Below, one piece after another: positions 2,945 to 17,527 of a stretch of DNA of 64,000 bases. Position numbers and translations under genes: made by a program. A model generated the notes under the pieces. That model made no database searches. It was not told where the DNA came from and was given only the letters and a program-made list of their open reading frames with translations. The DNA comes from a virus: the IMG/VR virus record IMGVR_UViG_3300045988_163768. One strand, written 5' to 3'. Within the stretch, counting starts at the first letter, position 1; each line of letters begins with the position of its first letter.

Positions 2945-3760
2945 ATGAAATTTTGTGTAGACTATGTTAAAGATTTTCCTTATTTAAAAGAAGTAGATGA
3001 ATTAAATATTTCTTTTAATAAGCGAGATTTATCTTTATTAGACTTTTTACTGTTACATAAAGATAAAAGGATAAATATAGAAATTAGAGATATTCAAGAA
3101 TTTATAGATGATGATAGTATAAGCTTATTTAAAGCTTATTTAGAAAAGTATCCAGACTTAAATTTTTATTTAAAATTACCGGTTTCCGCGGATTTTGAGA
3201 GGTTTTATTCTATTGTTAAAGAATCAAAGCTTAATTTTTATTATGATAAATATATAAATTCATGGGATACACTTTATTCTTTTGTTAATATGGGCGTATC
3301 AGATGTATATATAACAGAAGAATTAGGTTTTGAATTAGACAAAGTTAGTTCTTTTTGTCACTCTAAAGGAGTAAAAGTAAGAGCTTTCCCTAATGTGTGT
3401 CAGAATAGTTGGGTGGGAGTTCCAGACATAAAAGGATTTTTTATTAGACCCGAAGATGTATCTTTATACGAACCATATATTGACACTCTTGAGTTTTACA
3501 AAAGCAAAAATTCTTTAGGGACTTTATATCGAGTGTATGCAAAAGAGAAGAAATGGTTTGGACAATTAAAAGAATTAATTCTTAGTTTTAATGAAGATCT
3601 TGATAGCAGGTGTATTTTGCCTATTTTTTCAGAAAAGAGAATTAGTTGCGGAAAGAAGTGCCTTAAAGGAGAAAGCTGTAGAATATGTGATAATATAAAA
3701 AAATTATCTGATGTATTAGAACGAGAAAAAATTATAATTAAACCTTTAGACAATAATTGA
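2945..3760 (+). CDS. hypothetical protein (C-terminal Cys cluster CGKKCLKGESCRIC)
   Basis: RBS GAGGAGAAAA; 271 aa. Confidence 0.45.
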   Translation: MKFCVDYVKDFPYLKEVDELNISFNKRDLSLLDFLLLHKDKRINIEIRDIQEFIDDDSISLFKAYLEKYPDLNFYLKLPVSADFERFYSIVKESKLNFYYDKYINSWDTLYSFVNMGVSDVYITEELGFELDKVSSFCHSKGVKVRAFPNVCQNSWVGVPDIKGFFIRPEDVSLYEPYIDTLEFYKSKNSLGTLYRVYAKEKKWFGQLKELILSFNEDLDSRCILPIFSEKRISCGKKCLKGESCRICDNIKKLSDVLEREKIIIKPLDNN

Positions 3761-4544: not shown

Positions 4545-4759
4545 AAATACATAAGAAATGAAAAAATAAAGAACCAACGTACCGATGATTACGTTGTAAA
4601 ATAAGACAGTCGCAGAGGCAGGACGGGAGAGTAGCCAATTCAATGCGTAGAGGAGATTCGCACCTCTGAAGCCCAGTGATGCACTCCCTTTGCAGCGAAA
4701 TCTGCAAAAGCTATCAACTACCCCACAGAAGAGCATTGGCTAGACTCAGTTGGGGATAT

Positions 4760-4837
4760 GCGGGATTAGCTCAGTCAAGGTTAGAGCAGTCGCCTTATAA
4801 GCGATGTTTGTCCTGGGTTCGAATCCCAGATTCCGCA
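4760..4837 (+). tRNA. tRNA-Ile (anticodon TAT)
   Basis: Acceptor GCGGGAT/ATTCCGC, D-arm GCTCAGT...GAGC, anticodon loop CTTATAA, T-arm CTGGGTTCGAATCCCAG. Confidence 0.6.
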
Positions 4838-5003
4838 TTGTAACAATGAAATAATTACTTTAAAATTCATTTTAGAGTAAGAGATCCTATGGTCTTATTA
4901 TAAAGAATTTTCTTATTTGAAAATCTTTATTTGAAAATGATTCTTAATTATTTTTAAACTGTTCTTTATAGGGATCAAAAACTAAAAAGAAAGCGAGAAA
5001 ACA

Positions 5004-5666
5004 ATGAAAAATCTTACAAAAGTGTTAATAATTGGCGGAATGATGTTCAGTTTAAGTTTGCCAGTTTCCGCGGCAAACGTTGAATATCAAAATAAATTTA
5101 ATTCAGAGCCAGTTCTTATTGCTGTTGATGAAAATAACGATTTTCAAATAGTAGATTCAGAAAATCAGAATGTACTTTTTTCATCTAAAAGAGTAGATGA
5201 AGAAGTATATACTACAGCAAATTTGAATATTCGAAATATTCCTTCTATCGACTCAGAGCGAATAATGGTATTAAAGTCAAATACTGAAGTGCATAGAATT
5301 GGAATAAGTGGAGAGTATGGTTGGGATATCATTGAAATAGATGGTAAACAATATTTTGCATGGAACGAATATTTAAGTACAGAGCAAGATTATATAGATT
5401 TATCTATAGAAGATAATGTAGTTGAGTATATATATGAATATACTAATTCTGCAAAAGAAATTATTGCTCAGAGAGAATCTGGTGGCGATTACAATGCTGT
5501 CAGTCCAACAGGAGAGTATATAGGAAGATACCAATTAACATATACTATGTTAAATGGAGATTATTCCGCAGAAAATCAAGAGCGAGTTGCAGAGCAATAT
5601 GTAGCGGAAAGATACGGAAGCTGGGATGCGGCGTTAGCTTTTTGGGATGCTAATGGCTGGTATTAA
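5004..5666 (+). CDS. secreted protein with C-terminal IsaA/SceD/Apf-like lytic transglycosylase-like domain
   Basis: Signal peptide MKNLTKVLIIGGMMFSLSLPVSAA; C-terminal motif RESGGDYNAVSPTGEYIGRYQL resembles staphylococcal IsaA and lactobacillus Apf domains. Confidence 0.4.
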   Translation: MKNLTKVLIIGGMMFSLSLPVSAANVEYQNKFNSEPVLIAVDENNDFQIVDSENQNVLFSSKRVDEEVYTTANLNIRNIPSIDSERIMVLKSNTEVHRIGISGEYGWDIIEIDGKQYFAWNEYLSTEQDYIDLSIEDNVVEYIYEYTNSAKEIIAQRESGGDYNAVSPTGEYIGRYQLTYTMLNGDYSAENQERVAEQYVAERYGSWDAALAFWDANGWY

Positions 5667-5675
5667 ATAGTAAGA

Positions 5676-5746
5676 GGGCAGTTGGTGCAATGGCAGCATA
5701 AAAGTCTCCAAAATTTTAGATTTAGGTTCGATTCCTAAACTGCCTG
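5676..5746 (+). tRNA. tRNA-Trp (anticodon CCA)
   Basis: Acceptor GGGCAGT/ACTGCCT, anticodon stem AAAGT/ATTTT with loop CTCCAAA, T-arm TTAGGTTCGATTCCTAA. Confidence 0.55.
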
Positions 5747-5753
5747 TTTTCTT

Positions 5754-5782
5754 TTGATTTTTTATAAAAATTATGATATAAT
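5754..5782 (+). promoter_or_regulatory. promoter
   Basis: TTGATT, 17 nt, then TATGATATAAT. Confidence 0.6.
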
Positions 5783-5816
5783 ATTTATATAAGAAATGAG
5801 AAAGAGGGAATAAAAT

Positions 5817-6140
5817 ATGAGCAAAGTTAAAACTTTTATTTGGGTTGACGATGAAAGACCTATTCCAAAAAATTTAATGTGGTTGGGTGAAGAAAAAGTT
5901 GTTTGTAGAACTTATAGACAAGCGATTAAAGCTTTAAAAACTTATTGTTATCAAGGTAATGTCTTTCTTAGTTTAGACCATGACTTAGGTCAAAAGAAAA
6001 CAGGATATGACATTGCAAAATATATTGTAGAAAATAAAATTCCTTTATACGGTTTTGTTTGTCATTCAATGAATCCTGTTGGGAGGTCTAATATTGAAGA
6101 TTTACTTTGTCATTATGGATATTTTTTAGGATGTAAATAA
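5817..6140 (+). CDS. hypothetical protein
   Basis: RBS AGAGGGAATAAAATATG; 107 aa. Confidence 0.45.
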   Translation: MSKVKTFIWVDDERPIPKNLMWLGEEKVVCRTYRQAIKALKTYCYQGNVFLSLDHDLGQKKTGYDIAKYIVENKIPLYGFVCHSMNPVGRSNIEDLLCHYGYFLGCK

Positions 6141-6164
6141 AAAAGTTATGACAAAAATCTTAAA

Positions 6165-6193
6165 TTGATTTTTTGAAAAATTTATGATATAAT
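6165..6193 (+). promoter_or_regulatory. promoter driving a noncoding stretch
   Basis: TTGATT, 17 nt, then TATGATATAAT; no ORF follows for about 300 nt. Confidence 0.6.
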
Positions 6194-6494
6194 AAATACA
6201 TAAGAAATAAAGAAAAACATATGGCTTAGACTTTTTTAGCAAGAATGAATCCAAGGTTGTGCCAGAAAACAAGCTAGGAAATTTCGAGTTTAGGGCTTTG
6301 TACTTTAAAAGCCTAGGCGTTTAGAGATTGCGGAAAGTGCGTATTCCTCACTTAGTTAGCCTGTAAGTAATTAAATGAACTAAAAGATGTCTGCGTACTT
6401 AGAAGGAAAAAAATAAACTAGGTTAAACCTGGCTGAAAAAAATAGACCTAGATACCATGGTAGGGGTTAAAATTGTTCCTAAGTTTAAAACAAT

Positions 6495-6523
6495 TTGATT
6501 TTTTAAAAAAATTATGCTATAAT
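6495..6523 (+). promoter_or_regulatory. promoter upstream of tRNA-Tyr leader
   Basis: TTGATT, 17 nt, then TATGCTATAAT. Confidence 0.6.
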
Positions 6524-6690
6524 AAAGGTATATTTCAGATACCTCGTAGCGGAAAAATCTGACGTTAATGAACAAAACGAGAAAATTGTTCTAATCTTTG
6601 GTAATTTGTAGAGATGGTAAATTACTTGGGGTACTATTAAGGCTCCAGAAGCATCGTCTTCTAAAGGATAGCTGTCCAACTTAATAATGA

Positions 6691-6772
6691 TGGGGAGTAA
6701 CCCAGCGGCGAGGGTAGCGGTCTGTAAAACCGTGACAAAGAAACGTCGTAGGTTCGAGTCCTACCTCCCCAA
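6691..6772 (+). tRNA. tRNA-Tyr (anticodon GTA), long variable arm
   Basis: Acceptor TGGGGAG/CTCCCCA, anticodon loop CTGTAAA, variable arm GACAAAGAAACGTC, T-arm GTAGGTTCGAGTCCTAC. Confidence 0.6.
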
Positions 6773-6841
6773 TTAAGATGGACACAGCAATGTTGCGTAA
6801 TATTGGGGATATTAAGTGCAAAAATAATTCCATCTTGTTTT

Positions 6842-6925
6842 GGCTCTGTAGCCTAGTTGGTTATGGTACCACTCTGTCACAGTGGAATAACACGGGTTCG
6901 AGTCCCGTCAGAGTCGTTTGGCTAA
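6842..6925 (+). tRNA. tRNA-Asp (anticodon GTC)
   Basis: Acceptor GGCTCTG/CAGAGTC, anticodon stem CCACT/AGTGG with loop CTGTCAC, T-arm ACGGGTTCGAGTCCCGT. Confidence 0.6.
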
Positions 6926-7024
6926 CAAAGCAAAAATGTATGATGACAACATACATTTTTTATGAACTTGTCATTCATATTTTTTATAAATTAAAGGTTG
7001 GATATTTGCCGGCACTTTAATTTT

Positions 7025-7098
7025 GGGGTTATAGTTCAGTCGGGATGAACGCTTGTTTTGCAAACAAGAGGTCGGGAGTTCGAGTCTCCCTAACTCCA
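7025..7098 (+). tRNA. tRNA-Ala (anticodon TGC)
   Basis: Acceptor GGGGTTA/TAACTCC, anticodon stem CTTGT/ACAAG with loop TTTGCAA. Confidence 0.6.
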
Positions 7099-7165
7099 CG
7101 CTTTGTTTCCGTCTTTGCATTGCAAAGCCAAGTAACTGAAGAACGGAACGATAGGTTACTTAAAT

Positions 7166-7194
7166 TTGATTTTTATAAAAAATTATTATATAAT
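7166..7194 (+). promoter_or_regulatory. promoter
   Basis: TTGATT, 17 nt, then TATTATATAAT. Confidence 0.55.
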
Positions 7195-7284
7195 ATATAA
7201 GTAATAAAAATAAAGAGACGCTAAAAGCAATTTCAAAAATTTGACTGTAAATCAAATCTCAAGGTGAGTACGCGTCTCGGATAA

Positions 7285-7355
7285 TGCTCCTTGGTGTAGT
7301 GGTAGCACATCGCACTTTGACTGCGACGGCATGGGTTCGAATCCCGTAGGAGCCG
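7285..7355 (+). tRNA. tRNA (anticodon TTG, Gln-type); a second TTG tRNA lies at 10358
   Basis: Anticodon stem TCGCA/TGCGA with loop CTTTGAC, T-arm ATGGGTTCGAATCCCGT; 1:72 is mispaired. Confidence 0.45.
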
Positions 7356-8223
7356 CTCGGATTATTAGTTATCCAACAACGCACTAACTTCGGCGAACAC
7401 GTTTGAAAAACTAATCGGCTGGCTTCAGGTCGTTAAATAAGCGTGGTGACACGTATAAAGCATGAAAATGCCTCCTTCTAAAGAGGAGTAATAGAAAGCC
7501 AATACTTACTAACGTTCCAACCTAAAGTTTTGGGGCATCCGCTGAGGACAATGGTTGGTCGGGCATCATGGGAAAGGTGCTATAAAATAAACTCAGAAAT
7601 GAGTGGATAGTAAGGTTGTTTTATGGTGCAAGTTCCGCAAGAGCAAGTGCTGTATTTAATTAGTCATTTCTGACTTAAATCGAAAGATAGTTGGAATAGC
7701 TTAAAGTAAGTCGATAGCAAGACGAGCAGGGTTGCGATGAGTGGGCTGTACTCAAAAGGTATAGATGCTCAAATGTGTACCTCGTAATCCATAATATATG
7801 TACATGATTGCATTGGATATTTAATCAGGAAGAGTCTGATTTGGTTTTCTAATATATTATATGAAAATAAAACATTTACTTATACAGCAAAAGTGTACAT
7901 GACTACATAGAGAAAAGCGACTTATTGTTCTGTAATATGGACACATATTGAACTCGCAAGGTGAGATATGAAAAAGTACAATTAGGTGCAACTCTAAGAG
8001 ACTGCAATCTTTGAATCCCGCAAGGAAGAATGTGCTGAAAGGAAATTTATAATACTATGTAGTAAGAGTTTGCCAGGAGCCACTGAAACTGGTGTCGCTA
8101 TTAGCTACGGATTAATCGTTCGTGTGATTACTTACTTCCAACGGTAAGCAAAGCTAATTATAATAGGTCAATAATCTCAGCCTAATAAAAAATTATTAAG
8201 GCGAGGAAACTCGCTTTTTAAAT

Positions 8224-8295
8224 GCCGGTATAGCATAGTTGGCAATGCGACTGATTTATAATCAGTAAACCGGGGTTCGAATCCCTCTACCGGCT
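8224..8295 (+). tRNA. tRNA-Ile (anticodon TAT), second copy
   Basis: Perfect acceptor GCCGGTA/TACCGGC, anticodon stem ACTGA/TCAGT with loop TTTATAA, T-arm GGGGTTCGAATCCC. Confidence 0.55.
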
Positions 8296-8513
8296 CGCAA
8301 ATCCTTTATTAAATGCGGTGAACGGCATACACAGCAATAGAGTGTAGGGCACAGCGGAAAAGGTACCTGTACTGGCTCCGCCGGGGTAAAGGCTTGAACC
8401 TAGGCAAGATCGCACCCACAATTCACAGTTATGTCACTGTGACATATCCGAAAAGGAGAAATTAAATGAGTCGCCATGGTAGACGGCAAGTTCGCAATAG
8501 TCTACTACAATAA

Positions 8514-8587
8514 AGAGTATGTGGTGTAATGGTAGCACACGAGTTTTGGGAACTTGAGGCGGCGTTCAAATCGCACATATTCTACTA
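8514..8587 (+). tRNA. probable tRNA-Pro (anticodon TGG); fold only partly resolved
   Basis: GTGGTGTAATGGTAGCACA D-region, anticodon stem CGAGT/ACTTG with loop TTTGGGA, TTCAAATC T-loop; two acceptor registers possible. Confidence 0.35.
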
Positions 8588-8707
8588 ACACGTGCAAATT
8601 TTTCTCACGTGGCTAAATAAGCTCTAGTGATGAAATTGGTAAACACAATACAACACAACACAATATTTAAGCTGCTGTGGGTTCGAGTTTCACTTAGAAT
8701 ATTTTAA

Positions 8708-8787
8708 GGGTGAGTGGTGTAATGGTAGCCACGCCAGTCTTAGGAACTGGTGCCTCGTGCGTGCGGGTTCGAATCTCGCCTCGCCTA
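8708..8787 (+). tRNA. tRNA-Leu (anticodon TAG), long variable arm
   Basis: Acceptor GGGTGAG/CTCGCCT, anticodon stem CCAGT/ACTGG with loop CTTAGGA, variable arm TGCCTCGTGCGT, T-arm GCGGGTTCGAATCTCGC. Confidence 0.6.
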
Positions 8788-9409
8788 TGAACAAGTTACA
8801 ATATGATGGTAAGCAGTTCAGGAGCTTTAAACGGTGCTATCCATTAGGTTAATAACCTTGTTATAATTGTAAGTCTGAGTAGTGGTTAATTGAAAAGAAA
8901 CTGCATTATAACAAAATAATTAAATATTTATAACCCGTGTGCGATTTGATCTTAATTTTATTTAACTAGCTAAATTTTATTAAGAAAAATTGGGTAATCG
9001 CTGAGACAAGGTTTGAGGAGTAGTAAGTCACTGTTTTATGAAAGTAGTAATAATGAGCTAGAAAAAATACTATAAGTAATTTAATAAGTACGAGCTAAAG
9101 TATATAACTATTAGGGTGGTTCGATTCCAGCCCCACGGGACTATGGTGCCGCAGTCACTTAATCCAGATTAAATCTGATGGGTGTTATGAAACGGTTAAA
9201 TGGACTTTGAGAGACAGCCAAACCGCCGTAAGGAGTAGGCGGTATAAAACGAACTAAACCATCTTTCAAGAATCCAGGCTATGAAAAGAGTACAATTACT
9301 TGATCGAGACCTAAGCCCCATGGTACTAGAGGAGCATGCGTGAATGTCAGACCTTATTCAAATAAGTTAGGGCTAAAAAGTACCTGAAACGCTAGGCAAA
9401 AAATCTTAA

Positions 9410-9438
9410 TTGATTTTTTAAAAAATATATGATATAAT
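9410..9438 (+). promoter_or_regulatory. promoter upstream of split tRNA
   Basis: TTGATT, 17 nt, then TATGATATAAT. Confidence 0.6.
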
Positions 9439-9541
9439 AAATACATGAAAACAAAGTATTAAAGATGCATTACAGCAATGAATTTCTGTATAGATAAAAG
9501 GAGTTTTTATAATAAGAGCATCTTGTAAATCAACGTTTTAA

Positions 9542-9573
9542 TGCCCTGTAGTCCAATGGTAGAACGGCTGGCT
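9542..9573 (+). tRNA. tRNA-Asn-like 5' half (acceptor, D-arm, 5' anticodon stem)
   Basis: TGCCCTGTAGTCCAATGGTAGAACGGCTGGCT closely matches the 5' half of E. coli tRNA-Asn; its partner strands lie at 10311-10350. Confidence 0.55.
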
Positions 9574-10310
9574 GTGCGGGAGTAGCATAAGTAATGCATT
9601 TGAACTATGGTCAACAGTGATTAACTCATAATGTTAATTCTTTATATTTATAAAATAGAAAAGGAGAAAAATTATGAGTAATAATATTAAAGCTGTTACA
9701 GATTTTAGAAAGAGAAGAAAGGAAAACTTAGTAAAAGTATTAGGTTCTTGTTGTAGCTTATGTGGATATAATAAATGTGTTGGAGCTTTAGAGTTTCATC
9801 ATATATATAAATCCAGAAGATAAAAAGTATCAATTATCCAGTGGAAATTGTCATAATATTGAAGAAGATTTAGAAGAAGTAAAAAAAAATGTCTTTTAGT
9901 CTGTTCAAATTGTCATAGAGAAATTCATACAACTAATTTGTATGAAGGAATTGATTTATGGAAATATCAAGTTTATAATGATAATTATGCGAATGAATTG
10001 ATACAAGAAAATAAAAAAGAAGAACGAAAATGTTCTAATTGCGGAATAAAAATTAGTCGTTTTTCTAAAACTGGTTTATGTCCATCATGTGCTCAATTAA
10101 AAAGACGAATTATTGAAAGACCTGATAGAGAAGAATTAAAAAAATTAATTCGAGAGTTACCTTTTACTAAAATTGCAGAAAAATATAATTGTAGTGATAA
10201 TACAATTAGAAAATGGTGCGATAAAGAAAATCTCCCTCGAAAAAAATCTGAGATTGATAAATACACTGATGAGCAATGGGAAAATATTTGAGTTCAAATC
10301 TCAACTTCTG
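9574..10310 (+). mobile_element. 737-bp insertion or intron in the tRNA anticodon loop, carrying a frameshifted HNH endonuclease gene
   Basis: Separates complementary halves of one tRNA: GCTGG...CCAGC anticodon stem and TGCCCTG...CGGGGCA acceptor. The 5' end reads GTGCGGG and the 3' end ...TTCTG. Confidence 0.5.
9674..10291 (+). pseudogene. HNH homing endonuclease, disrupted by two frameshifts (or requires recoding)
   Basis: Frame 1 gives MSNNIK...CCSLCGYNKC...LEFHHI then stops; HNH core LLVCSNCHREIHTTNLYEG continues in other frames after the runs ATATATATAAA and A9 (9887-9895); the last 117 aa form ORF 9938-10291. Confidence 0.55.
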
Positions 10311-10350
10311 ATTAACCAGCGTGTTGTGGGTTCAATTCCCACCGGGGCAG
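10311..10350 (+). tRNA. tRNA-Asn-like 3' half (3' anticodon stem, variable loop, T-arm, acceptor)
   Basis: ATTAACCAGCGTGTTGTGGGTTCAATTCCCACCGGGGCAG pairs with 9542-9573; removing 9575-10311 would give a CTGTTAA loop (GTT, Asn). Confidence 0.5.
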
Positions 10351-10357
10351 TTTATAA

Positions 10358-10429
10358 TGGGGTATCGCCAAGCGGTAAGGCATCGGACTTTGACTCCGAA
10401 ATACGCTGGTTCAAATCCAGCTACCCCAG
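10358..10429 (+). tRNA. tRNA-Gln (anticodon TTG)
   Basis: TGGGGTATCGCCAAGCGGTAAGGCA...CTTTGAC...GGTTCAAATCCAGCTACCCCAG, near-identical architecture to E. coli tRNA-Gln with U1-A72. Confidence 0.7.
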
Positions 10430-10782
10430 CTCAAATCTGAGAAATTGAAGAACCTCAGTCATAGATGACCTATGAAATTCTTCCAAGGTTGTTTCGTACT
10501 ATCAGCCTTGTAAATCAATGGGAAGTATGAGTACGGGATGAAGGGCTTACACTTCGCCGTCCTTGTAAGCTAAGGACTTGACAGAGATGGTATCGAAAGC
10601 TAATTTCATTAAAAGCGTCATCTTTTAATGAAGTGGAAAAATAGATACATACAGCAATTATACTGCTCATATAGGGCACTTTCCTGCTAAGAAAGAATAT
10701 TTCAGTATCTAGCTATTTTATCCTGTCTTTTTAAGCACACTATTTCTACAGGAACGGTTAATGAAAAGGCTGATAAAGGAGA

Positions 10783-10974
10783 TTGAATATGTATATTTGT
10801 CCTACTTGTAAAAAAGGATTTGAAAAAGAAGAAAATCTTACAAAACATTTTCTTTCCTGTTGGAAAGAGCAACATCCATCTCATGTTTCTAAATCCGCCC
10901 CAAGGAGTGAGAATACTGAAACTAGAAAGGTAAATAAAGATATTATAAAGTTCTTTAATTCTTTTAAGGAGTGA
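10783..10974 (+). CDS. small C2H2-like zinc-finger protein
   Basis: RBS AAAGGAGATTGAATATG; CPTCKK...H...SC. Confidence 0.4.
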   Translation: MNMYICPTCKKGFEKEENLTKHFLSCWKEQHPSHVSKSAPRSENTETRKVNKDIIKFFNSFKE

Positions 10975-10978
10975 CAAG

Positions 10979-11329
10979 ATGGCGGAAGTATTAGTAAAAA
11001 CTCATTTAGTAGTAACAGATGTGCACGAAGAATATGATATCAACTGGTGCGGTAGGATTCTTGATGTAAGACCAAAGATTAAAAATAATATGCCTGTCTT
11101 TGTAGTAGTTAGTTCTAGAGGAAGAATGGAAGTTAATACTACTGACATGCAAAGAGTTGAAAGATGTGCTAAACTATTAACTGCTCCAAGAGGTAGACAA
11201 GCAGTTACGACAGATACGGCTCGTATCTTTATCGTAGAAGAAAATGAAAATGAAGTTTTGATGGGCGTTTTAACTCATAATCATGTTAAAAGTTATGCAC
11301 CAATGTTTGATAAAGTTGATTTTGTTTAG
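10979..11329 (+). CDS. hypothetical protein
   Basis: RBS TAAGGAGTG; 116 aa. Confidence 0.45.
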   Translation: MAEVLVKTHLVVTDVHEEYDINWCGRILDVRPKIKNNMPVFVVVSSRGRMEVNTTDMQRVERCAKLLTAPRGRQAVTTDTARIFIVEENENEVLMGVLTHNHVKSYAPMFDKVDFV

Positions 11330-11336
11330 AAAATGA

Positions 11337-11420
11337 GGGAGTGTAAACGGCTAAGGAGTCCGACCTGACTGTAAATCAGGTGGCATTTGCATCGAGTGGG
11401 TTCGATTCCCTCCACTCCCA
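11337..11420 (+). tRNA. class II tRNA with anticodon GTA (Tyr-type), second copy
   Basis: Acceptor GGGAGTG/CACTCCC, anticodon stem CCTGA/TCAGG with loop CTGTAAA, variable arm GGCATTTGCATC, T-loop TTCGATT. Confidence 0.5.
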
Positions 11421-11736
11421 CGCTGTGGCGAAGGAACACACATAAAACTCCTTAACTGTGATAGACCTGGTTAAAAGCTAATGAAGTTAGTCCGCGAGGA
11501 TGCGGTAGACTTGAATGTCAAGCTAATCATTAGATCAAAGGGAAAACTTTATATAAATGATCGTTGGTAATACCATTTATGTGAAAGATGCTTATAATAC
11601 CAACTTAATAAGCATCAAGTGCGTTAAAGCTGATCGTACATATTATAACACTCTTTCGTCTAAAAGGAATAGGATATTACCCTCTCAAGGTAAAGATAAC
11701 AGTTCGAGTCTGTTAAGAGTGATTAAAAAATCTTAA

Positions 11737-11765
11737 TTGATTTTTTAAAAAATATATGATATAAT
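11737..11765 (+). promoter_or_regulatory. promoter
   Basis: TTGATT, 17 nt, then TATGATATAAT. Confidence 0.6.
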
Positions 11766-11787
11766 AAATATATCAAAAGAAAAGAAA

Positions 11788-11861
11788 CACACCATCGTCT
11801 AGCAGGTACAGGATAGAAGCCTTTCAAGCTTCAGACGCGAGTTCAAGTCTCGCTGGTGTGA
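11788..11861 (+). tRNA. tRNA-Glu (anticodon TTC)
   Basis: Acceptor CACACCA/TGGTGTG, anticodon stem GAAGC/GCTTC with loop CTTTCAA, T-arm GCGAGTTCAAGTCTCGC. Confidence 0.6.
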
Positions 11862-11950
11862 TTTTAAGACAGATACTGCAATTTTATTTTAAGAAGAGAA
11901 CTTTTAATTCTTTTGGCTTAACAAATCTGTCTTGTAAATTAAAAATCTTA

Positions 11951-11979
11951 ATTGATTTTTTAAAAAATATATGATATAA
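11951..11979 (+). promoter_or_regulatory. promoter (duplicate of 11737 copy)
   Basis: Identical 45-nt block AAAAATCTTAATTGATTTTTTAAAAAATATATGATATAATAAATAT. Confidence 0.6.
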
Positions 11980-12192
11980 TAAATATATCAAAAGAAGAAA
12001 GGAAATGATATTTATGTTTGATGATTTTGACTTAGGTACACAGTGTGAAGAATTTTATGATGAGTCCAAATATTGGGAATTCATTATGAACGAGGAGCCA
12101 ATAGAAGAAGAGTAATAAGTTTTTTAGCTTTATAGTTAAGCAGTCTAAGACTAATTCTGAGAACCTGGGTTTGAATCCCAGTACAAATATGC

Positions 12193-12265
12193 GGCTCCGT
12201 GGTCTAAGGGTTAGGATACGACCCTTTCAAGGTCGTAATGCTGGGTTCAAGTCCCGCCGGGGTCA
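12193..12265 (+). tRNA. tRNA-Glu (anticodon TTC), duplicated copy
   Basis: Acceptor GGCTCCG/CGGGGTC, anticodon stem CGACC/GGTCG with loop CTTTCAA; downstream flank also duplicated. Confidence 0.5.
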
Positions 12266-12367
12266 TTTAAGACAGAAACAGCAAACAATTATATTATTTC
12301 AAGGAAAGAACTTTTAATTCTTATAAATCTAAAATAAACTGTCTTGTAAAAAAGGAGAAAATTTTTT

Positions 12368-12595
12368 ATGACTGACAAAGAAAAATTACTTGGTGGAATC
12401 AAATTGATTCAATCTGCTTGTCACAATAGTCCTTTTATTGTAGAAGATTTTCTTGATGAGGATTTTACTGAATTAAAAAAACAGTATTCTTCCTTACCCG
12501 CTTCCAGAGTTTCTTTTATAATTGCGAATGGTTATGAAAGAGAACCAGTAGGTTTTGATTTTGATGAATTGGGAAATTTTCTCGGAAGATTTTAA
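12368..12595 (+). CDS. hypothetical protein
   Basis: RBS AAAAGGAGAAAA. Confidence 0.4.
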   Translation: MTDKEKLLGGIKLIQSACHNSPFIVEDFLDEDFTELKKQYSSLPASRVSFIIANGYEREPVGFDFDELGNFLGRF

Positions 12596-12598
12596 TAT

Positions 12599-12673
12599 CG
12601 CGGGGTAGAGCAGCCTGGAAGCTCGCTTGGCTCATAACCAAGAGGTCGTGGGTTCGAATCCCACCCGCCGCAA
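12599..12673 (+). tRNA. initiator tRNA-fMet (anticodon CAT)
   Basis: CGCGGGGTAGAGCAGCCTGGAAGCTCGCTTGGCTCATAACCAAGAGGTCGTGGGTTCGAATCCCAC closely parallels E. coli tRNA-fMet, including three G-C pairs in the anticodon stem and a C1 mismatch. Confidence 0.7.
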
Positions 12674-13077
12674 TTTTGTCTTTTATTTACAGATAAACCT
12701 AGGAAGTTATTAGTAAATAAGAACAAACGTTCTTCATGCGGAGATGAAGTGACTTTAGTGGTTTGAATAAGGAAACCGTTCCCGAATGTGGGTGAAAGTA
12801 AGATTCGTTAGTGCTTCTCTTATCTTTTGCTAATATAGCTAAAAAATAGAAGCGTGGTAAAAGCTGGGTGACGTCATATGAAACGCGGATACCAAACGCC
12901 GCGAGTGCAAGAAACCAGTGTTGCACATCTCTTTCTTTAAAATGTATTGTAAAAATTACATAGGTTTATTTTGTGCCTTTCTGTAAAAACAAAATATTAA
13001 ATTCCTCTTTCTGAGCAAGGTAGCGACTATTTAGGTGGCGGTGGTGTAAGCATATAGCATAGGCTCTAAAAATAATT

Positions 13078-13105
13078 TGAAAAAAATAAAAAATTATGAT
13101 ATAAT
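13078..13105 (+). promoter_or_regulatory. promoter
   Basis: TTGAAA, 16 nt, then TATGATATAAT. Confidence 0.5.
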
Positions 13106-13144
13106 AAATATATCAAAAGAAAAGAAAAGAAAAAAGAAATATAA

Positions 13145-13218
13145 GCTTAAGTAGCTCAGTTGGTTAGAGCACATGTCTGATAAGCATGAGGTCGGTGGTT
13201 CAAGTCCATTCTTAAGCA
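13145..13218 (+). tRNA. tRNA-Ile (anticodon GAT)
   Basis: GCTTAAGTAGCTCAGTTGGTTAGAGC...CTGATAA...GGTGGTTCAAGTCCATTCTTAAGC resembles E. coli tRNA-Ile. Confidence 0.7.
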
Positions 13219-13544
13219 TCAAGTTTATAGGCTTACTTTTTAAAAACCTACGATAGTCAAAAGCATATGGGCAGACAATAGATATGCAATGCAATGCAAG
13301 TGAATTTTCTTGTCCGAGCGATTCGGTTAAATCGTGGAGGCAGAAGTGCCTGTTAAAAAGTACTGCGGACGTCCATTGTAATTAAAGTATCAAATAATTA
13401 AATAATTTTGCAGACTGATAAATTAAATCTTTTGTCTTTGAAAGTTGGATAGATATAACTTTCTATTAGCAAAGCCTTTAATGTCAATGCTTAATATAAG
13501 GTTTTATCCTCTTGGAGTAAAGAGCCTTTGAATCTATTCATTTT

Positions 13545-13626
13545 GGGTGTGTGACGGAAAGGTATACGTGGCGGACTTAAAATCCGCTGACTTAGAGTCA
13601 TGTGAGTTCGAATCTCATCACGCCCA
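13545..13626 (+). tRNA. tRNA-Leu (anticodon TAA)
   Basis: Acceptor GGGTGTG/CACGCCC, anticodon stem GCGGA/TCCGC with loop CTTAAAA, long variable arm, T-arm GTGAGTTCGAATCTCAT. Confidence 0.6.
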
Positions 13627-13712
13627 CTGTTCATGAAACTGTTTTCCTTCCTTTAGGGTGTTAATTCCCTTATAATAAATTAACAAACTGAAGAGTTTAA
13701 CACTCTTCATTT

Positions 13713-13797
13713 GGAGGTATGCTGCAACTGGCGAGACAGAGCGGACTTAAAATCCGCTACATTAGAAACACTGTGGGTTCGAATCCCACTACCTTCA
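13713..13797 (+). tRNA. tRNA-Leu (anticodon TAA), second copy with divergent D region
   Basis: Acceptor GGAGGTA/TACCTTC, identical anticodon arm GCGGACTTAAAATCCGC, T-arm GTGGGTTCGAATCCCAC. Confidence 0.45.
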
Positions 13798-13801
13798 TTA
13801 A

Positions 13802-13880
13802 GCTCTTATGGCGGAATGGCATACGCAGTAGTCTCAAAAGCTACGGAGAAATCATTTGGGTTCGAGTCCCAATAGGAGCA
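13802..13880 (+). tRNA. tRNA-Leu (anticodon CAA)
   Basis: Acceptor GCTCTTA/TAGGAGC, anticodon stem GTAGT/GCTAC with loop CTCAAAA, 11-nt variable region, T-arm TTGGGTTCGAGTCCCAA. Confidence 0.5.
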
Positions 13881-14025
13881 TTAAAACCTTCGTTATAAAT
13901 ATCTCAACAGGGTGTTTACCTTACGGTAGTATTTGCGGAGAGAGGATAGTTCAGCGTAAGAGATATACGAGACTATGTAAGTTATCGGCAAGTCAGTAGG
14001 TTTCTGCGAAGGTTACCTACACTAA

Positions 14026-14098
14026 GCGGGAATGGCGGAATGGCATACGCGTGAGTCTTAGGAACTCAATTTTGTGGGTTCGAGTCCCACTTCCCGTA
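14026..14098 (+). tRNA. tRNA with anticodon TAG (Leu codon CUA) but a short variable loop
   Basis: Acceptor GCGGGAA/TTCCCGT, anticodon stem TGAGT/ACTCA with loop CTTAGGA, 5-nt variable loop, T-arm GTGGGTTCGAGTCCCAC. Confidence 0.45.
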
Positions 14099-14405
14099 TC
14101 CTATGATATAAAATTAGACTAAAGAGTCATAGGTAATTAAATTATTTATTTTAGATGTTATTTTTCACTTTATCAAGAAGTCAAGAGAAGGTTTGGAATC
14201 CTTTGTAAGCAACTTGCATCTAGGCTTCAGTAAAGTTGAAAACACTTAAGCTTAAGTTTTAAAATTAAAAGATGGAATTTTTAGATGACATGTGGTTTGT
14301 TTGCTTTATTGCTTTATCCCAAAAGTAAAAAAGTAAAAAGTAAAACTAGTAAATGGAGTTTTTAGACTGTTTTTCTCGTATAGGAAGCATATAAAACGGT
14401 CACAG

Positions 14406-14478
14406 GGGAAGATGGCTTATATGGTAAAAGCGTAGGACTGAAAATCCTAAGATGTAGGATCGTTACCTACTCTTCCCA
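14406..14478 (+). tRNA. tRNA-Phe (anticodon GAA) with unusual T-loop ATCGTTA
   Basis: Perfect acceptor GGGAAGA/TCTTCCC, anticodon stem TAGGA/TCCTA with loop CTGAAAA. Confidence 0.5.
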
Positions 14479-14481
14479 TCT

Positions 14482-14569
14482 GTGCGGTTGGCAGAGAGGC
14501 TGATTGCAGTGGATTGCTAATCCACGAACCGGGGAAACCGGTTCAGAGGTTCGAATCCTCTACCGCACG
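14482..14569 (+). tRNA. tRNA-Ser (anticodon GCT)
   Basis: Acceptor GTGCGGT/ACCGCAC, anticodon stem GTGGA/TCCAC with loop TTGCTAA, long variable arm GAACCGGGGAAACCGGTTC, T-arm AGAGGTTCGAATCCTCT. Confidence 0.65.
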
Positions 14570-14570
14570 T

Positions 14571-14599
14571 TTGAAAATAATAAAAAATTATGATATAAT
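14571..14599 (+). promoter_or_regulatory. promoter
   Basis: TTGAAA, 17 nt, then TATGATATAAT. Confidence 0.55.
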
Positions 14600-14630
14600 T
14601 ATTATATCAAAAGAAAAGGAGATTGATAAT

Positions 14631-14975
14631 ATGTTTACAGACCTGAATATGTATAATTATAAGTTTTATACTTCAAAAAATCTTGTTGTGGCGGTTACCA
14701 CATACGCGGGAAAAATTGTTAAAGGGAAAGCAAAATGCAACCCAGAGGATACATTTGATCTGGAGAAAGGAAAAGCTCTTGCCGCAGTAAGATGCAATGC
14801 AAAAATTGCAAAGAAAAGGGTTAAGAGAGCTTCTGGTAAATTTGAAGAAGCAATCGAAAGATATAATAAAGCGTCAGAATATCTTGAAGAAATGACTGCT
14901 TATATTAACGATGCAGAAATTTTGGAGCAGAGAGCAGAAGATGAACTCGCTGAAGTGCTTTCAGATTTTAAATAA
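14631..14975 (+). CDS. hypothetical protein
   Basis: RBS AAAGGAGATTG; the longer track ORF from 14514 overlaps tRNA-Ser and the promoter, so the internal ATG is chosen. Confidence 0.45.
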   Translation: MFTDLNMYNYKFYTSKNLVVAVTTYAGKIVKGKAKCNPEDTFDLEKGKALAAVRCNAKIAKKRVKRASGKFEEAIERYNKASEYLEEMTAYINDAEILEQRAEDELAEVLSDFK

Positions 14976-15123
14976 TTAAATAAATAAAGGCTTACTTATC
15001 ACACAGCAATCATACGATAATAGAGAATAGAATAGATAGTTTTATATTTTATATAAAACTTGAGAGAGAGTTTTAGTTTATTTGCTCTTAAAACTAAGTA
15101 ACCAAAAGTAAGCCTTGTATATG

Positions 15124-15207
15124 CCGCAGTACCTTAGTGGGGAGGAGGCTCTGTCTTGAAAACAGCTGCTCCGAGAGGGGCTGTAGGTTCGAATCCTACC
15201 TGCGGCG
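15124..15207 (+). tRNA. tRNA-Ser (anticodon TGA)
   Basis: Acceptor GCCGCAG/CTGCGGC, anticodon loop CTTGAAA, long variable arm TGCTCCGAGAGGGGC, T-arm GTAGGTTCGAATCCTAC. Confidence 0.6.
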
Positions 15208-15263
15208 TTCGAGATAGTTAAATATCTCAAAAGTAAAAAAAATGGGAAGGAGAAATATAAAGA

Positions 15264-15497
15264 ATGAAAATACATAATGTAACCGATATTGATAAGTTTT
15301 TCAAAGTAGTTAACTCTTGTGAAGGTAAAGTAGAGTTAGTAACAGGGCAGGGTGACAGACTTAACTTAAAGTCTACATTAACACAATATGTAGCTTTGGC
15401 AAAAGTTTTTTCTGATGGAAAGATTCCTGAAATGGAATTAGTTTGTTATGAGAAATCTGATGTGACTAAATTTATGGAGTATATGTTAAATGCCTAG
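15264..15497 (+). CDS. hypothetical protein
   Basis: RBS GGAAGGAGAAATATAAAGAATG. Confidence 0.4.
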   Translation: MKIHNVTDIDKFFKVVNSCEGKVELVTGQGDRLNLKSTLTQYVALAKVFSDGKIPEMELVCYEKSDVTKFMEYMLNA

Positions 15498-15867
15498 TAG
15501 AAGAAATAGAGCCTATTACCGCAAGCAAAGAATTAAACATATCAAAAGAAAAAAGAATATTAGTGAACATTGTTATGGGTATGACTGGTATCAAGTAGAT
15601 GGAGCTTACTCAAAAGGTAAGATTCATTGCTCTTGTCCACTCTGCTCAGCAAAAACTAATAATAAAAGGCGGCATGGATATAATCATTCTAAAAATTGGA
15701 AACCTTCTGATTTAAAAAAAATTGAAGATATGGATTATCAAGAGCATGGTTTCCGCACATGTGAAGCGGATGTAACAGAAAGCTGGGACGATATAATTGT
15801 AAACGATGTTTCAGTAGATGGAATTCCTCTTGATGGTCATTATTTTGACAATGTAATAGATTTTTAG
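15490..15867 (+). CDS. hypothetical Cys/His-rich protein
   Basis: Overlaps upstream gene by 8 nt; CSCPLCS motif. Confidence 0.4.
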   Translation: MPSRRNRAYYRKQRIKHIKRKKNISEHCYGYDWYQVDGAYSKGKIHCSCPLCSAKTNNKRRHGYNHSKNWKPSDLKKIEDMDYQEHGFRTCEADVTESWDDIIVNDVSVDGIPLDGHYFDNVIDF

Positions 15868-15966
15868 TTTCTTATTACTTTTTCCTTTCTCTTTTGGTTT
15901 AAAGTTTATAATCTTATTTTTAGGTTTTTTAAGAATTATAAATGAAAATTGAAAGGAGAACTTTAG

Positions 15967-16167
15967 ATGGGATATTGTGTAATAAGAAATAACAATAAGT
16001 ATATTTACAATTTAGTTGAGATAATTTGTGATCTTGAGTCTGATGTAGTAAGTATACCGACTACTTTTTCTCCAGGAAGTAAAGTTTTTGTTGTGGAGAG
16101 TTCTTCATATTATATGCTAAATGCATCAAAAGAGTGGAAGAAACTAGTAAAGACGGGAAGGAGTTAA
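15967..16167 (+). CDS. hypothetical protein
   Basis: RBS GAAAGGAGAAC. Confidence 0.35.
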   Translation: MGYCVIRNNNKYIYNLVEIICDLESDVVSIPTTFSPGSKVFVVESSSYYMLNASKEWKKLVKTGRS

Positions 16168-16248
16168 TGGTTCTATTGAAGAATTAAATAACAAAATTAA
16201 GACACTTTCAACAAATGTTTTATATAAACCAGATAGTAAAAATCTTAA

Positions 16249-16277
16249 TTGAAATTTTAAAAAATTTATGATATAAT
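16249..16277 (+). promoter_or_regulatory. promoter
   Basis: TTGAAA, 17 nt, then TATGATATAAT. Confidence 0.55.
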
Positions 16278-16364
16278 AAATATATAATAAAGATAAAGAC
16301 AAAAACAGCAATTTATAAGCATTTAATTGGGGATTAAAGAAGCTAAGTTATTTTGTCTTGTTCG

Positions 16365-16438
16365 CGGGATGTGGTCTAGTTTGGTAAGACGCTGGATTTG
16401 GGTTCCAGAAATCGCAGGTTCGAATCCTGTCATCCCGT
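16365..16438 (+). tRNA. tRNA-Pro (anticodon TGG)
   Basis: Perfect acceptor CGGGATG/CATCCCG, anticodon stem CTGGA/TCCAG with loop TTTGGGT, T-arm GCAGGTTCGAATCCTGT. Confidence 0.6.
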
Positions 16439-16440
16439 TT

Positions 16441-16511
16441 GCGGAAGAGAGAAACGGTTTACTCGGTAGGCTCATAACCTAAAGACATCAGGTTCGACTC
16501 CTGTTTCCGCT
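16441..16511 (+). tRNA. tRNA-Met or Ile2 (anticodon CAT, elongator type)
   Basis: Acceptor GCGGAAG/TTTCCGC, anticodon loop CTCATAA, TTCGACT T-loop. Confidence 0.5.
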
Positions 16512-16514
16512 ACT

Positions 16515-16587
16515 GTGGCTGTGGCAGATAAGGTAATGCATTAGATTGTGACTCTAAATTATATGGGTTCAAATCCCATCAGTCACC
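16515..16587 (+). tRNA. tRNA-His (anticodon GTG)
   Basis: Acceptor GTGGCTG/CAGTCAC, anticodon stem TTAGA/TCTAA with loop TTGTGAC, T-arm ATGGGTTCAAATCCCAT. Confidence 0.6.
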
Positions 16588-16855
16588 TAGTAAGCTGCTA
16601 TGAGGTTTACGAACACACTTAGTGTGGAGGAGAAATGCATAGGTCTTGCATAACAGACTGGCGTTATGTCGTTCAAGAAGAGATGGTGTATTAACGAACC
16701 TCACTTCGAATCTACGAGAAAGATTCAATAAAGATTAGTCGTTATATGCTTTTTAAGAGGAAAATAAGTTTGAGCGTCAAACTTGACTCACAATAACTTT
16801 TATGGCTTATGTTATTGTGGAAAGCCAAAAATTATAAAATGAAAAGGAAAATACT

Positions 16856-17092
16856 ATGAAAGTATCTATAGTAGCATATTTAGATTATTTAATAGGTCGT
16901 CTTAGACATGGTCATTTAGAAGGAGTTCTATATATCCCAGATGAAGATGCGAAATTATTTAAAGATAATCCTGCAAAGTATTTAAAAAATCATCCTGATT
17001 ATAAAGATTATTTAGACCTTATAGTAGATGATTTTGAAGTAGAAGATATGGGAGATATTGACATGGTATCTTTTAAAACTTTAGGTTTTTAG
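16856..17092 (+). CDS. hypothetical protein
   Basis: RBS AAAAGGAAAATACTATG. Confidence 0.4.
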   Translation: MKVSIVAYLDYLIGRLRHGHLEGVLYIPDEDAKLFKDNPAKYLKNHPDYKDYLDLIVDDFEVEDMGDIDMVSFKTLGF

Positions 17093-17164
17093 AGGATATA
17101 ACTCAGTTGGAAGAGTATCAAACTTTTAATTTGAGAGTCGTGGGTTCAAGTCCCACTATCCTCA
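17092..17164 (+). tRNA. tRNA-Lys (anticodon TTT)
   Basis: Perfect acceptor GAGGATA/TATCCTC, D-arm ACTCAGTTGGAAGAGT, anticodon stem TCAAA/TTTGA with loop CTTTTAA, T-arm GTGGGTTCAAGTCCCAC. Confidence 0.7.
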
Positions 17165-17175
17165 CTAAGCGTTAA

Positions 17176-17204
17176 TTGATTTTTTAAAAAAATTATGATA
17201 TAAT
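17176..17204 (+). promoter_or_regulatory. promoter
   Basis: TTGATT, 17 nt, then TATGATATAAT. Confidence 0.6.
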
Positions 17205-17340
17205 AAATATATATAAAAGCACATACAGCAAATTCTACTATGTAGATTACTGGTTCGAATCCAGTTTTGTGATGAAAGTTTACAAATAGCTTAATAGGTC
17301 AAGCAACATTAAATTGAGTGCTTTGCAATATCATAAATAA

Positions 17341-17413
17341 GGCTTCTTGATTAAGTGGTTAAGACATTATCATCTTACGGTGATGTTAGAGGTTCGACTC
17401 CTCTACCGTTCAC
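17341..17413 (+). ncRNA. tRNA-like element, possibly degenerate tRNA-Arg (ACG)
   Basis: Anticodon-like hairpin CATC-TTACGGT-GATG and canonical T-arm AGAGGTTCGACTCCTCT, but no 5' strand found to pair with the 3' acceptor ACCGTTC. Confidence 0.25.
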
Positions 17414-17527
17414 TGATTTTGTCTGATTCTTGGCTGAATGTAGAAACTAAAAAATAATCCGCAAAAATCGCATTTTGAAAATTCTGGTATACTGTAAGTG
17501 TAAAGAAAAACAAAAAGGAGCAGAAAA

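Follow-up and report, generated by a model that had tools for sequence, protein, structure and literature searches.

Can a phage tRNA gene whose anticodon is split by 737 nucleotides (nt) of inserted DNA still supply a tRNA, and if so, how would the insert be removed? This question was raised by the tRNA-Asn gene at positions 9542-10350 of IMG/VR virus record IMGVR_UViG_3300045988_163768, a 64,000-nt stretch of viral DNA that we refer to in its entirety as the window; the parts of the gene and of its insert described below, and the ligase, kinase-like, and phosphoesterase genes within 34888-37987, are on its plus strand. The gene was called by ARAGORN only when introns were allowed. Joining 9542-9575 to 10313-10350 yielded a 72-nt cloverleaf with the anticodon loop CUGUUAA, that is, a tRNA-Asn(GUU), and put positions 35 and 36 of the anticodon loop on either side of the insert (9576-10312). 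The split gene described in the original prediction was therefore real, and its deletion of 9575-10311 did restore CUGUUAA, since that boundary is equivalent to ours and gives the same product. The ligated exon junction would read GTAGAACGGCTGGCTGTTAACCAGCGTGTTGTGGG. As described below, the insert RNA itself has the shape of a tRNA, and we consider it very probable that it is a tRNA-like intron that is spliced at the RNA level.

An interrupted tRNA-Asn gene with intact exons

The 5' exon (9542-9575) holds the acceptor 5' strand, the D-arm, the 5' strand of the anticodon stem (9567-9571), and loop nucleotides C32, U33, G34, and U35 (9572-9575). The 3' exon (10313-10350) starts with U36, A37, and A38, continues with the 3' strand of the anticodon stem (10316-10320) and the T-arm, and ends with the acceptor 3' strand and a discriminator G; CCA is not encoded. 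The tRNA array of the window comprises 32 tRNA genes (4759-20682), and no tRNA-Asn was found among them with ARAGORN run without the intron option, which agreed with the earlier statement that the array holds no second one. Asn codons made up 6.1% of the 7056 codons in 14 long open reading frames (ORFs) of the window. The split-tRNA arrangement recurred across many diverged phage contigs, which argued that its presence in the window was not due to chance. In phage GenBank, no related phage was found and the matches were to tRNAs only. As to the host, only metagenome-assembled genome bins of gut and rumen Clostridia/Bacillota came up, with no isolate among them.

The insert RNA is predicted to fold as a tRNA mimic

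The two ends of the 737-nt insert formed an acceptor-like stem. Its 5' strand, GCGGGAG (9576-9582), faced CUUCUGA (10305-10311), which was followed by a discriminator-like U (10312); positions 2 to 7 paired, and G1 faced A72. Next to the 5' strand were U8-A9 (9583-9584) and a D-arm, GCAU-AAGUA-AUGC (9585-9597), whose 5-nt loop was short and lacked GG. A long arm took the place of the anticodon arm; its 5' strand (9598-9629) paired with a 3' strand at about 10248-10285, within the last codons of the insert's ORF, so that the ORF was located in the loop of this arm. A T-arm, UUGAG-UUCAAAU-CUCAA (10288-10304), contained the stop codon of the ORF (10289-10291) in its 5' strand and adjoined the acceptor 3' strand directly, without a gap. 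Rfam gave a weak tmRNA match over this T-arm (10289-10303).

The predicted folds were in keeping with this assignment. The minimum free energy structure (RNAfold) of a 151-nt natural derivative of the insert, found in contig locus L364, was a cloverleaf (-33.5 kcal/mol, z=-4.06), and in the folded pre-tRNA, RNAfold nested this cloverleaf within the anticodon loop. The insert thus has a 7-bp acceptor stem that is formed by its ends and stacked on a 5-bp T-stem, a canonical T-loop, G53-C61, U8, and a D-arm with A14, and the members of the family end at the discriminator or at N73-CCA. What a functional tRNA has and the insert lacks is an anticodon arm with a 7-nt loop; a long arm or a 9-nt linker was present instead, and neither ARAGORN nor RF00005 called the intron itself as a tRNA. 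At the level of sequence, the insert RNA was shown to be a tRNA mimic in its predicted structure, its conservation, and its span from nt 1 to N73 (or N73-CCA). The original prediction had offered three options for the locus. The closest was a split tRNA that needs another processing route; the tRNA shape of the insert, which indicates such a route, had been overlooked.

A further conserved motif was found. UUAAC (9621-9625) runs antisense to the loop across the junction (positions 34-38 after ligation), UUAAN is conserved at intron nt 43-48, and its fifth base matched nucleotide 34 in 10 of the 11 aligned introns. It is a speculative idea that this motif acts as a splint that bridges the two exons while a ligase seals the nick; it might also be a chance occurrence in AT-rich sequence.

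Helices of the intron are maintained by compensatory changes

To 19 members of the intron family, with 18 distinct acceptor 5' strands among them, we applied several tests of covariation. Acceptor positions 2 to 6 were paired in all 19 members and position 7 in 18, with three to five pair types per position. Cognate strands formed 6.68 of 7 pairs compared to 3.54 of 7 for non-cognate strands, and none of 20,000 permutations reached the observed total. The acceptor, D, and T helices were recovered by RNAalifold unaided, and 11 of the 15 pairs had changed in a compensatory manner. In pair counts, 93.4% of cells were paired versus 66.5% after shuffling and 41 to 48% when the partner strand was slid, and the covariation score was 0.754 versus 0.230. 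The G-C pair closing the T-stem (G53-C61) was invariant in all 19 members, as it is in tRNAs, and the T-stem also had compensatory changes. For the long arm, RNAduplex gave -18.2 kcal/mol for cognate strands and -10.3 kcal/mol for non-cognate strands in the same 19 members.

Because the members had been selected partly by acceptor pairing, the acceptor test was repeated with the D-arm and T-arm anchors alone setting the position of the helix. The outcome was bimodal: 15 anchor pairs had 6 or 7 of 7 acceptor pairs, and the others centered on 2 or 3. Anchor-defined tests replaced our first helix and T-arm scans, in which host tRNAs and chance matches in AT-rich sequence had dominated. A search of IMG/VR with a 14-mer from the D-arm was similarly unspecific, as most of its 120 matches were not intron loci (a 14-mer is too short); it did supply the true members L084, L128, L188, and L198, which were recognized in the later blind scan.

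Natural deletion derivatives and minimal introns

The L364 locus is on IMG/VR contig 3300045988_178161, and its tRNA-Asn flank is about 93% identical to that of the window at the DNA level; an RNA ligase encoded on the same contig (L284) is 97% identical to the window ligase discussed below. In the 151-nt intron of L364, the ORF is gone from its Shine-Dalgarno sequence to about codon 190, and both non-coding ends have been kept. A still shorter relative, L188, has a 54-nt intron with ends that are nearly those of the window intron (GCAGGAGUAGCAUAAGUAAUGC...AUUUGAGUUCAAAUCUCAACUUCUGAU). Its host is another tRNA-Asn body, which has the anticodon arm in common with that of the window. The sizes of 151 and 54 nt mean that neither intron holds a group I or group II ribozyme, and, judged by length, this natural deletion series is the decisive evidence against a group I or group II intron.

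We then scanned 470 loci and the window blindly for any terminal helix with an abutting T-arm whose removal restores a canonical tRNA. The scan yielded 31 distinct introns in phage tRNA genes, with lengths of 44, 44, 45, 45, 54, 58, 63, 64, 64, 68, 68, 70, 119, 123, 151, 465, and 616 to 862 nt (44 to 862 nt overall). The host genes were tRNA-Asn (9 introns), Lys (8), Glu (4), and Gln (3), together with Pro, Leu, Asp, Thr, and Phe (1 each); two further hosts were left without an assignment, their restored loop being non-canonical. The smallest introns (44 to 45 nt) consisted of a 7-bp stem, a 9-nt linker, a T-arm, and NCCA, and nothing else. The exons were canonical in about 30 diverged cases.

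The ends of the introns coincide with tRNA processing sites

In the boundary test, the 5' cut was fixed at acceptor nt 1, and bases past the acceptor 3' strand were removed until a 5-bp anticodon stem and a 7-nt loop were restored. This strict filter was used because ARAGORN alone was too lenient as a control for the tail rule. One base had to be removed after the acceptor in five CCA-less introns, four bases in five N73-CCA introns, and two bases in L064. When the scan was not biased by tail length, a single total length worked; the removed span was nt 1 to N73 in seven of eight CCA-less introns and nt 1 to A76 in 18 of 19 CCA-encoding introns. The register was not fixed by loop length alone, and tRNA identity supported it: L016 and L018, for example, have G73 and no G-1, which makes them tRNA-Asn genes and not the 'His' of ARAGORN.

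The tails of the introns also followed the habit of the resident tRNA genes. NCCA-tailed introns were located in CCA-encoding arrays in 7 of 7 cases, and CCA-less introns were located in CCA-less arrays in 10 of 12 cases (Fisher p=7e-4, for sequences that are related to one another). The last exon nucleotide before the intron (N-1) was U in 27 of the 31 introns, and the first intron nucleotide (N+1) was G in 26.

The intron lacks the hallmarks of known classes

At Rfam gathering thresholds, the window yielded tRNA only. With the threshold relaxed to E<=10, no group I, group II, or self-cleaving ribozyme family was found in 9400-10500, and no family was found in the 151-nt L364 derivative. The scan with group I and group II intron models that had been proposed as a check was therefore negative, and the unusual self-splicing intron of the original prediction did not hold up: there was no Rfam match at E<=10, the U|G rule was broken, and the 44- to 70-nt derivatives are too small.

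In the case of a group I intron, a U as the last nucleotide of the 5' exon and a G as the intron's 3'-terminal nucleotide are required. The boundaries that restore CUGUUAA end in A (10311) or U (10312), a difficulty that had been correctly foreseen, and the alternative U|...G boundaries do give the anticodon AUU, as had been noted. The introns of the relatives end in CCA or N73, and some of their 5' exons end in C, G, or A. RF00028 was not matched at E<=10, and its core of about 180 to 200 nt is impossible in the 44- to 70-nt members; the model itself is known to miss some divergent group I introns (PMC13011429). P1/P10 pairings drawn by hand gave no conserved U.G pair or guide sequence.

The group II-like start that had been seen in GTGCGGG turned out to be a coincidence, as GU is exon nucleotides 34 and 35 and GCGGGAG is the 5' strand of the acceptor-like stem. 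A group II intron was thus rejected because GUGCG is formed only with two exon bases (G34 and U35), RF00029 gave no match, the ORF is of the HNH type where a reverse transcriptase would be usual, and the element is too small for a six-domain RNA exceeding 400 nt. A bulge-helix-bulge intron was rejected as well. The motif (two 3-nt bulges separated by a 4-bp helix) is absent, and the junction consists of a 4x4-nt internal loop and then a 7-bp helix, with the 5' site at the end of the helix and the 3' site 1 nt (or 4 nt) past it.

The HNH gene shows a homing-endonuclease cycle

The ORF in the insert (9674-10291, with a Shine-Dalgarno sequence at 9660-9666) is the gene of an HNH homing endonuclease whose C-terminal region is of the helix-turn-helix type. 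It leaves 98 nt (9576-9673) and 21 nt (10292-10312) of the insert outside, close to the 120 nt estimated originally. The repaired translation matched PHROG HNH families (best E=7.9e-17); no Pfam HNH model passed, unlike the PHROGs, and the match to the C-terminal helix-turn-helix was weak. The protein has more than 600 homologues, each about 203 amino acids long, and C27, H42-H43, N77, C78, and H79 are among the residues that were invariant across 36 relatives. Homologues of the HNH protein are found inside the anticodon loops of many phage tRNA genes.

In the near-identical 939-nt contig L001, the ORF is intact (203 amino acids). Relative to L001, the window has gained 4 nt within the (AT)n run at 9801-9809 and a further 2 nt within the A run at 9881-9889, and the two slippage insertions shift the frame out and then back. 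The frameshifted HNH endonuclease reported originally was thus accounted for: in the window, the endonuclease gene has decayed via two slippage frameshifts, and the RNA elements are intact.

Three states of the ORF were found in one lineage, namely intact (L001), frameshifted (the window), and deleted (L364). By comparison of these sequences, this lineage displays a classic homing-endonuclease cycle. The near-identical intron ends in the different tRNA-Asn body of L188 indicate lateral spread into a shared anticodon arm, and intron-less tRNA-Asn genes with the identical anticodon arm were found in 25 viral contigs. The HNH enzyme would spread the intron DNA into intron-less tRNA genes having the same anticodon arm. 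Both presence/absence polymorphism and spread between alleles, as expected for a homing endonuclease, were observed; cleavage activity is predicted.

In one relative, L003, the tRNA-like ends are gone along with most of the tRNA, which shows what decay of such a locus looks like. L003 also has an HNH ORF with an in-frame TAG (3001-3612) and a tRNA with a CUA anticodon of the amber suppressor type (2004-2078), which together suggest stop-codon recoding.

A proposed splicing route

RNase P and RNase Z both leave a 5'-phosphate on the downstream fragment. The boundaries of the intron coincide with the cut sites of these two enzymes, and we therefore propose them for its excision. RNase P would cut the pre-tRNA between exon U35 and intron G+1, as it does at tRNA 5' ends, and RNase Z or an equivalent 3' endonuclease would cut after U10312, or after CCA in the CCA-encoding relatives. 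RNase Z is known to cut right after the discriminator of CCA-less precursors or right after CCA, leaving a 3'-OH (PMC7479834), and the Thermotoga tRNase Z cuts precisely after A76 (PMC1540738). The tRNA body would hold the two tRNA-Asn halves, with their 3'-OH and 5'-phosphate ends in the anticodon loop. Halves with such ends are a substrate of ATP-dependent RNA ligases, one of which would seal the break and so yield tRNA-Asn(GUU).

The candidate ligase is an Rnl5-like enzyme (34888-36132) with an N-terminal OB fold and PF09414, and its link to the intron is one that we infer. It matched Pfam RNA_ligase (1e-19) and the PHA02142 OB domain (4.9e-18), and its best solved relative was the Naegleria gruberi RNA ligase (5cot, E=1.9e-25). 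Two proteins encoded downstream, an AAA_33 P-loop kinase-like protein (36953-37444) and a Metallophos_2 phosphoesterase (37454-37987), are possible RNA end-healing partners of the ligase. In all, candidate RNA-repair genes are scattered over 24684-26473 and 33712-37987 of the window: the Rnl5-like ligase, the AAA_33 kinase-like protein, three calcineurin-like phosphoesterases, and a Pol-beta-type nucleotidyltransferase.

Weighing the proposed route

Several observations weighed against this proposal. Splicing, the cleavage sites, and ligation are all predictions made from DNA sequence. A clean insertion restores the 7-nt loop upon deletion in any case, so the loop alone is no proof of splicing, and the case has to rest on other evidence. 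The acceptor-like stem of window-type introns has the G1/A72 mismatch, and L064 and L206 require a 2-nt tail and are exceptions to the boundary rule. Rnl5/NgrRnl-type ligases favor nicks in duplex RNA, which an unsplinted nick in the anticodon loop is not; the UUAAN splint is a speculative answer to this preference. CCA is inhibitory to RNase Z of the B. subtilis type (PMC7479834), which means that introns of the CCA type would need a permissive RNase Z or another nuclease. Co-occurrence of the ligase with introns was visible for only a few contigs; among the matches listed (80 loci from a single-protein query that returned close relatives only), these were the L284/L364 contig and 3 other intron-bearing IMG/VR contigs. 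Finally, a second set of introns, described next, has no T-arm, so the common denominator of phage tRNA introns might be another enzyme.

The second set consists of endonuclease-bearing tRNA introns in L042 (979-1804), L054 (1031-1843), L026 (962-1805), L058 (976-1828), and L022 (940-1844) and also in L232, L263, and L267. The nucleases have a C-terminal DNA-binding domain like that of the window HNH protein and a different N-terminal part. The intron ends form a 5- to 9-bp terminal helix with a 1-nt 3' overhang, and the helix is adjoined by conserved AACU... and ...AGCA (or AACA) motifs; a ribozyme would need far more non-coding RNA than is present. Another interrupted tRNA was observed in L002 (677-1249). 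Its 497-nt insert is nearly filled by a 152-amino-acid ORF (743-1201) of PDDEXK_5, the family of the cyanobacterial tRNA-fMet intron endonuclease, and gave no match to group I or to any other intron or ribozyme family in Rfam at E<=1.

With these points taken into account, the specific route via RNase P, RNase Z, and a ligase seemed to us somewhat favored. The broader reading of the data is an unrecognized class of intron in phages of gut Bacillota, in which a tRNA or minihelix mimic of 44 to 860 nt resides in anticodon loops and would be removed by RNase P and RNase Z, the universal enzymes of tRNA end maturation, instead of by a ribozyme or a splicing endonuclease, with the exons rejoined by a ligase; we regard this as an even proposition. 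The same even chance applies to two further parts of that reading, namely that the class exists with or without a homing-endonuclease gene and that tRNA splicing has in it a third route, which depends on protein and RNase P and would be the first of the bacterial world.

Alternative explanations

The alternative that survived best also involves proteins. A dedicated phage or host endonuclease might recognize the helix that the intron ends form beside the anticodon stem and cleave both of its strands, with healing and sealing then carried out by a kinase, a phosphoesterase, and a ligase, much like archaeal and eukaryal tRNA splicing or the repair of the anticodon loop in T4. The window does encode a kinase-like protein, phosphoesterases, and a ligase, a healing set that is needed only for 2',3'-cyclic-phosphate and 5'-OH ends, and the second set of introns shares the terminal helix and 1-nt overhang and has no T-arm. 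Such an enzyme would leave unexplained the invariant G53-C61, the T-loop, and the U8/D-arm, as well as the exact 3-nt shift of the 3' boundary with CCA, which tracks the resident tRNA genes. There is also no bulge-helix-bulge motif, and no candidate endonuclease was identified in our analysis. We regard this explanation as a minor possibility.

Alternatively, the insert could be a selfish element that has inactivated the tRNA-Asn gene, with no splicing at all; its tRNA-like ends would then be what is left of a donor tRNA gene that travelled with the HNH cassette. The HNH ORF of the window is decaying, L003 has lost its tRNA-like ends and most of its tRNA, and the restoration of the loop is trivial for a clean insertion, all of which would fit. 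The tRNA gene killed by an HNH insertion, one of the three original options, is nevertheless unlikely. Exon cloverleafs were perfect in about 30 diverged lineages, the intron ends covaried through compensatory substitutions, and ORF-less versions kept their ends and little but the tRNA-like core. With the CCA concordance and the lack of a second tRNA-Asn in the array, these findings argued for splicing and against a dead gene.

We also weighed a new small self-splicing or self-cleaving ribozyme that resembles a tRNA by chance. Conserved single-stranded motifs (the UGG-N-CAA region) have no explanation in a tRNA mimic, and divergent ribozymes can escape Rfam (PMC13011429). On the other side were the 44- to 45-nt members, in which a stem, a linker, a T-arm, and NCCA are all that is present, the absence of any Rfam self-cleaver match at E<=10, and the lack of a conserved terminal G or an exon-binding guide. 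A ribozyme of this kind is very improbable. Excision without joining, which would leave a nicked or split tRNA or halves with some other role, is hardly credible: ligation is the least supported step of the route and split tRNAs do exist in some archaea, but a nick between positions 35 and 36 falls within the anticodon, and without ligation there is little reason for selection to have kept both exons intact.

Comparison with known systems

The tRNA introns of bacteria and phages are regarded as ribozymes that splice themselves, and enzyme-dependent tRNA splicing is seen as a trait of archaea and eukaryotes. For phage tRNA genes, no account of tRNA-like introns or of intron excision that depends on RNase P turned up in the literature covered, a coverage that leaves out most subscription journals, so an earlier description may exist.

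The closest known case is provided by the group I introns of Patescibacteria. These introns reside at 35/36 of tRNA-Asn(GUU), are 184 to 894 nt long (four have HNH genes), match RF00028 or a related model, have a 5' exon whose last nucleotide is U and a 3'-terminal G, and self-splice in vitro (PMC13011429). They share with the window family the host gene, the site CUGU|UAA, the class of homing endonuclease, and the difficulty of annotation. In contrast, the window family has no model match or terminal G, has a tRNA-like fold, and extends down to 44 nt. The tRNA introns that archaea and eukaryotes splice with proteins (PMC4090602, PMC3400036) are alike in the proposed logic, that is, excision from the anticodon loop and ligation while the tRNA body holds the halves. 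The window family differs in that it has no bulge-helix-bulge, a bacterial host, and a tRNA mimic borne by the intron as the putative recognition element. The position also differs (mostly 34/35 to 36/37 in the phage introns versus 37/38 in archaea and eukaryotes), as do the expected ends (3'-OH and 5'-phosphate versus cyclic phosphate and 5'-OH).

tRNA-like sites for RNase P and RNase Z are used in MALAT1 mascRNA, in mitochondrial tRNA punctuation, and in engineered tRNA-flanked guide-RNA arrays. As in MALAT1 mascRNA-type modules, a tRNA-shaped unit would direct one precise cut to its 5' end and another to the 3' side of its discriminator. The flanks of mascRNA-type modules are not rejoined, whereas the flanks of the window module are two tRNA halves that require ligation, which would make the tRNA-shaped module an intron. 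The tRNA-like domain of tmRNA is similar in that both RNA ends form the acceptor and T-arm and an ORF is in the interior. We rejected an assignment to tmRNA, as no tag-peptide architecture or pseudoknots were seen, the ORF encodes a 203-amino-acid nuclease, and the unit is embedded in another tRNA. In the T4 Pnkp/Rnl1 repair system (PMC3400036), a phage ligase likewise seals a break in the anticodon loop. The T4 break is made by a host defence nuclease and the window break would be a programmed step of expression; in addition, the window ligase is Rnl5-like and the T4 ligase is Rnl1-like.

If the proposal is true, a new splicing route has been assembled from housekeeping enzymes, the RNA ligases and end-healing enzymes of many large phages have an additional, housekeeping role, and the 44- to 54-nt introns are compact natural modules for programmed RNA excision. 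It would also mean that annotation tools miss or mis-assign tRNA genes in phage arrays; ARAGORN gave Asn genes as 'His', 'Thr', or anticodon ATT.

Other observations in the window and its relatives

Several further features of the tRNA array were observed. The tRNA at 8224-8296 has the loop UUUAUAA (UAU, 'Ile'), and its L364 orthologue has CUUGUAA (UGU, Thr), which reflects either an anticodon switch by G35A and C32U or a sequencing error; tRNA-Thr and tRNA-Val were not found in the window. Outside of the called tRNAs, orphan canonical T-arms with acceptor-like 3' strands and a 57-nt Rfam tRNA match (41.4 bits) that ARAGORN missed were located at 17249-17272, 17388-17411, 18213-18237, and 20447-20503; they may be tRNA remnants or further interrupted genes. 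One of the T-arms (18190-18240) resembles the 3' part of a tRNA that overlaps a small ORF at its end. The tRNA array of a related phage (L002, 5301-5902) contains a ROOL RNA (RF03087, 219.5 bits), and Rfam found no ROOL RNA in the window.

Four further homing-endonuclease-type genes, three GIY-YIG and one HNH_3/NUMOD, are located at 18455-19129, 45225-45917, 50981-51793, and 54346-55140. One GIY-YIG gene is between gyrB (43549-45066), whose Toprim domain is cut short, and gyrA (46661-49009), so the window gyrB may be split or intron-bearing. The window also encodes three proteins that make an unusual set for a phage (20781-22262, 26803-28368, and 30759-33245): one with the shoulder and repeat domains of major vault protein, one of the DUF2828/DUF7788 type, and one of the band-7/flotillin type.

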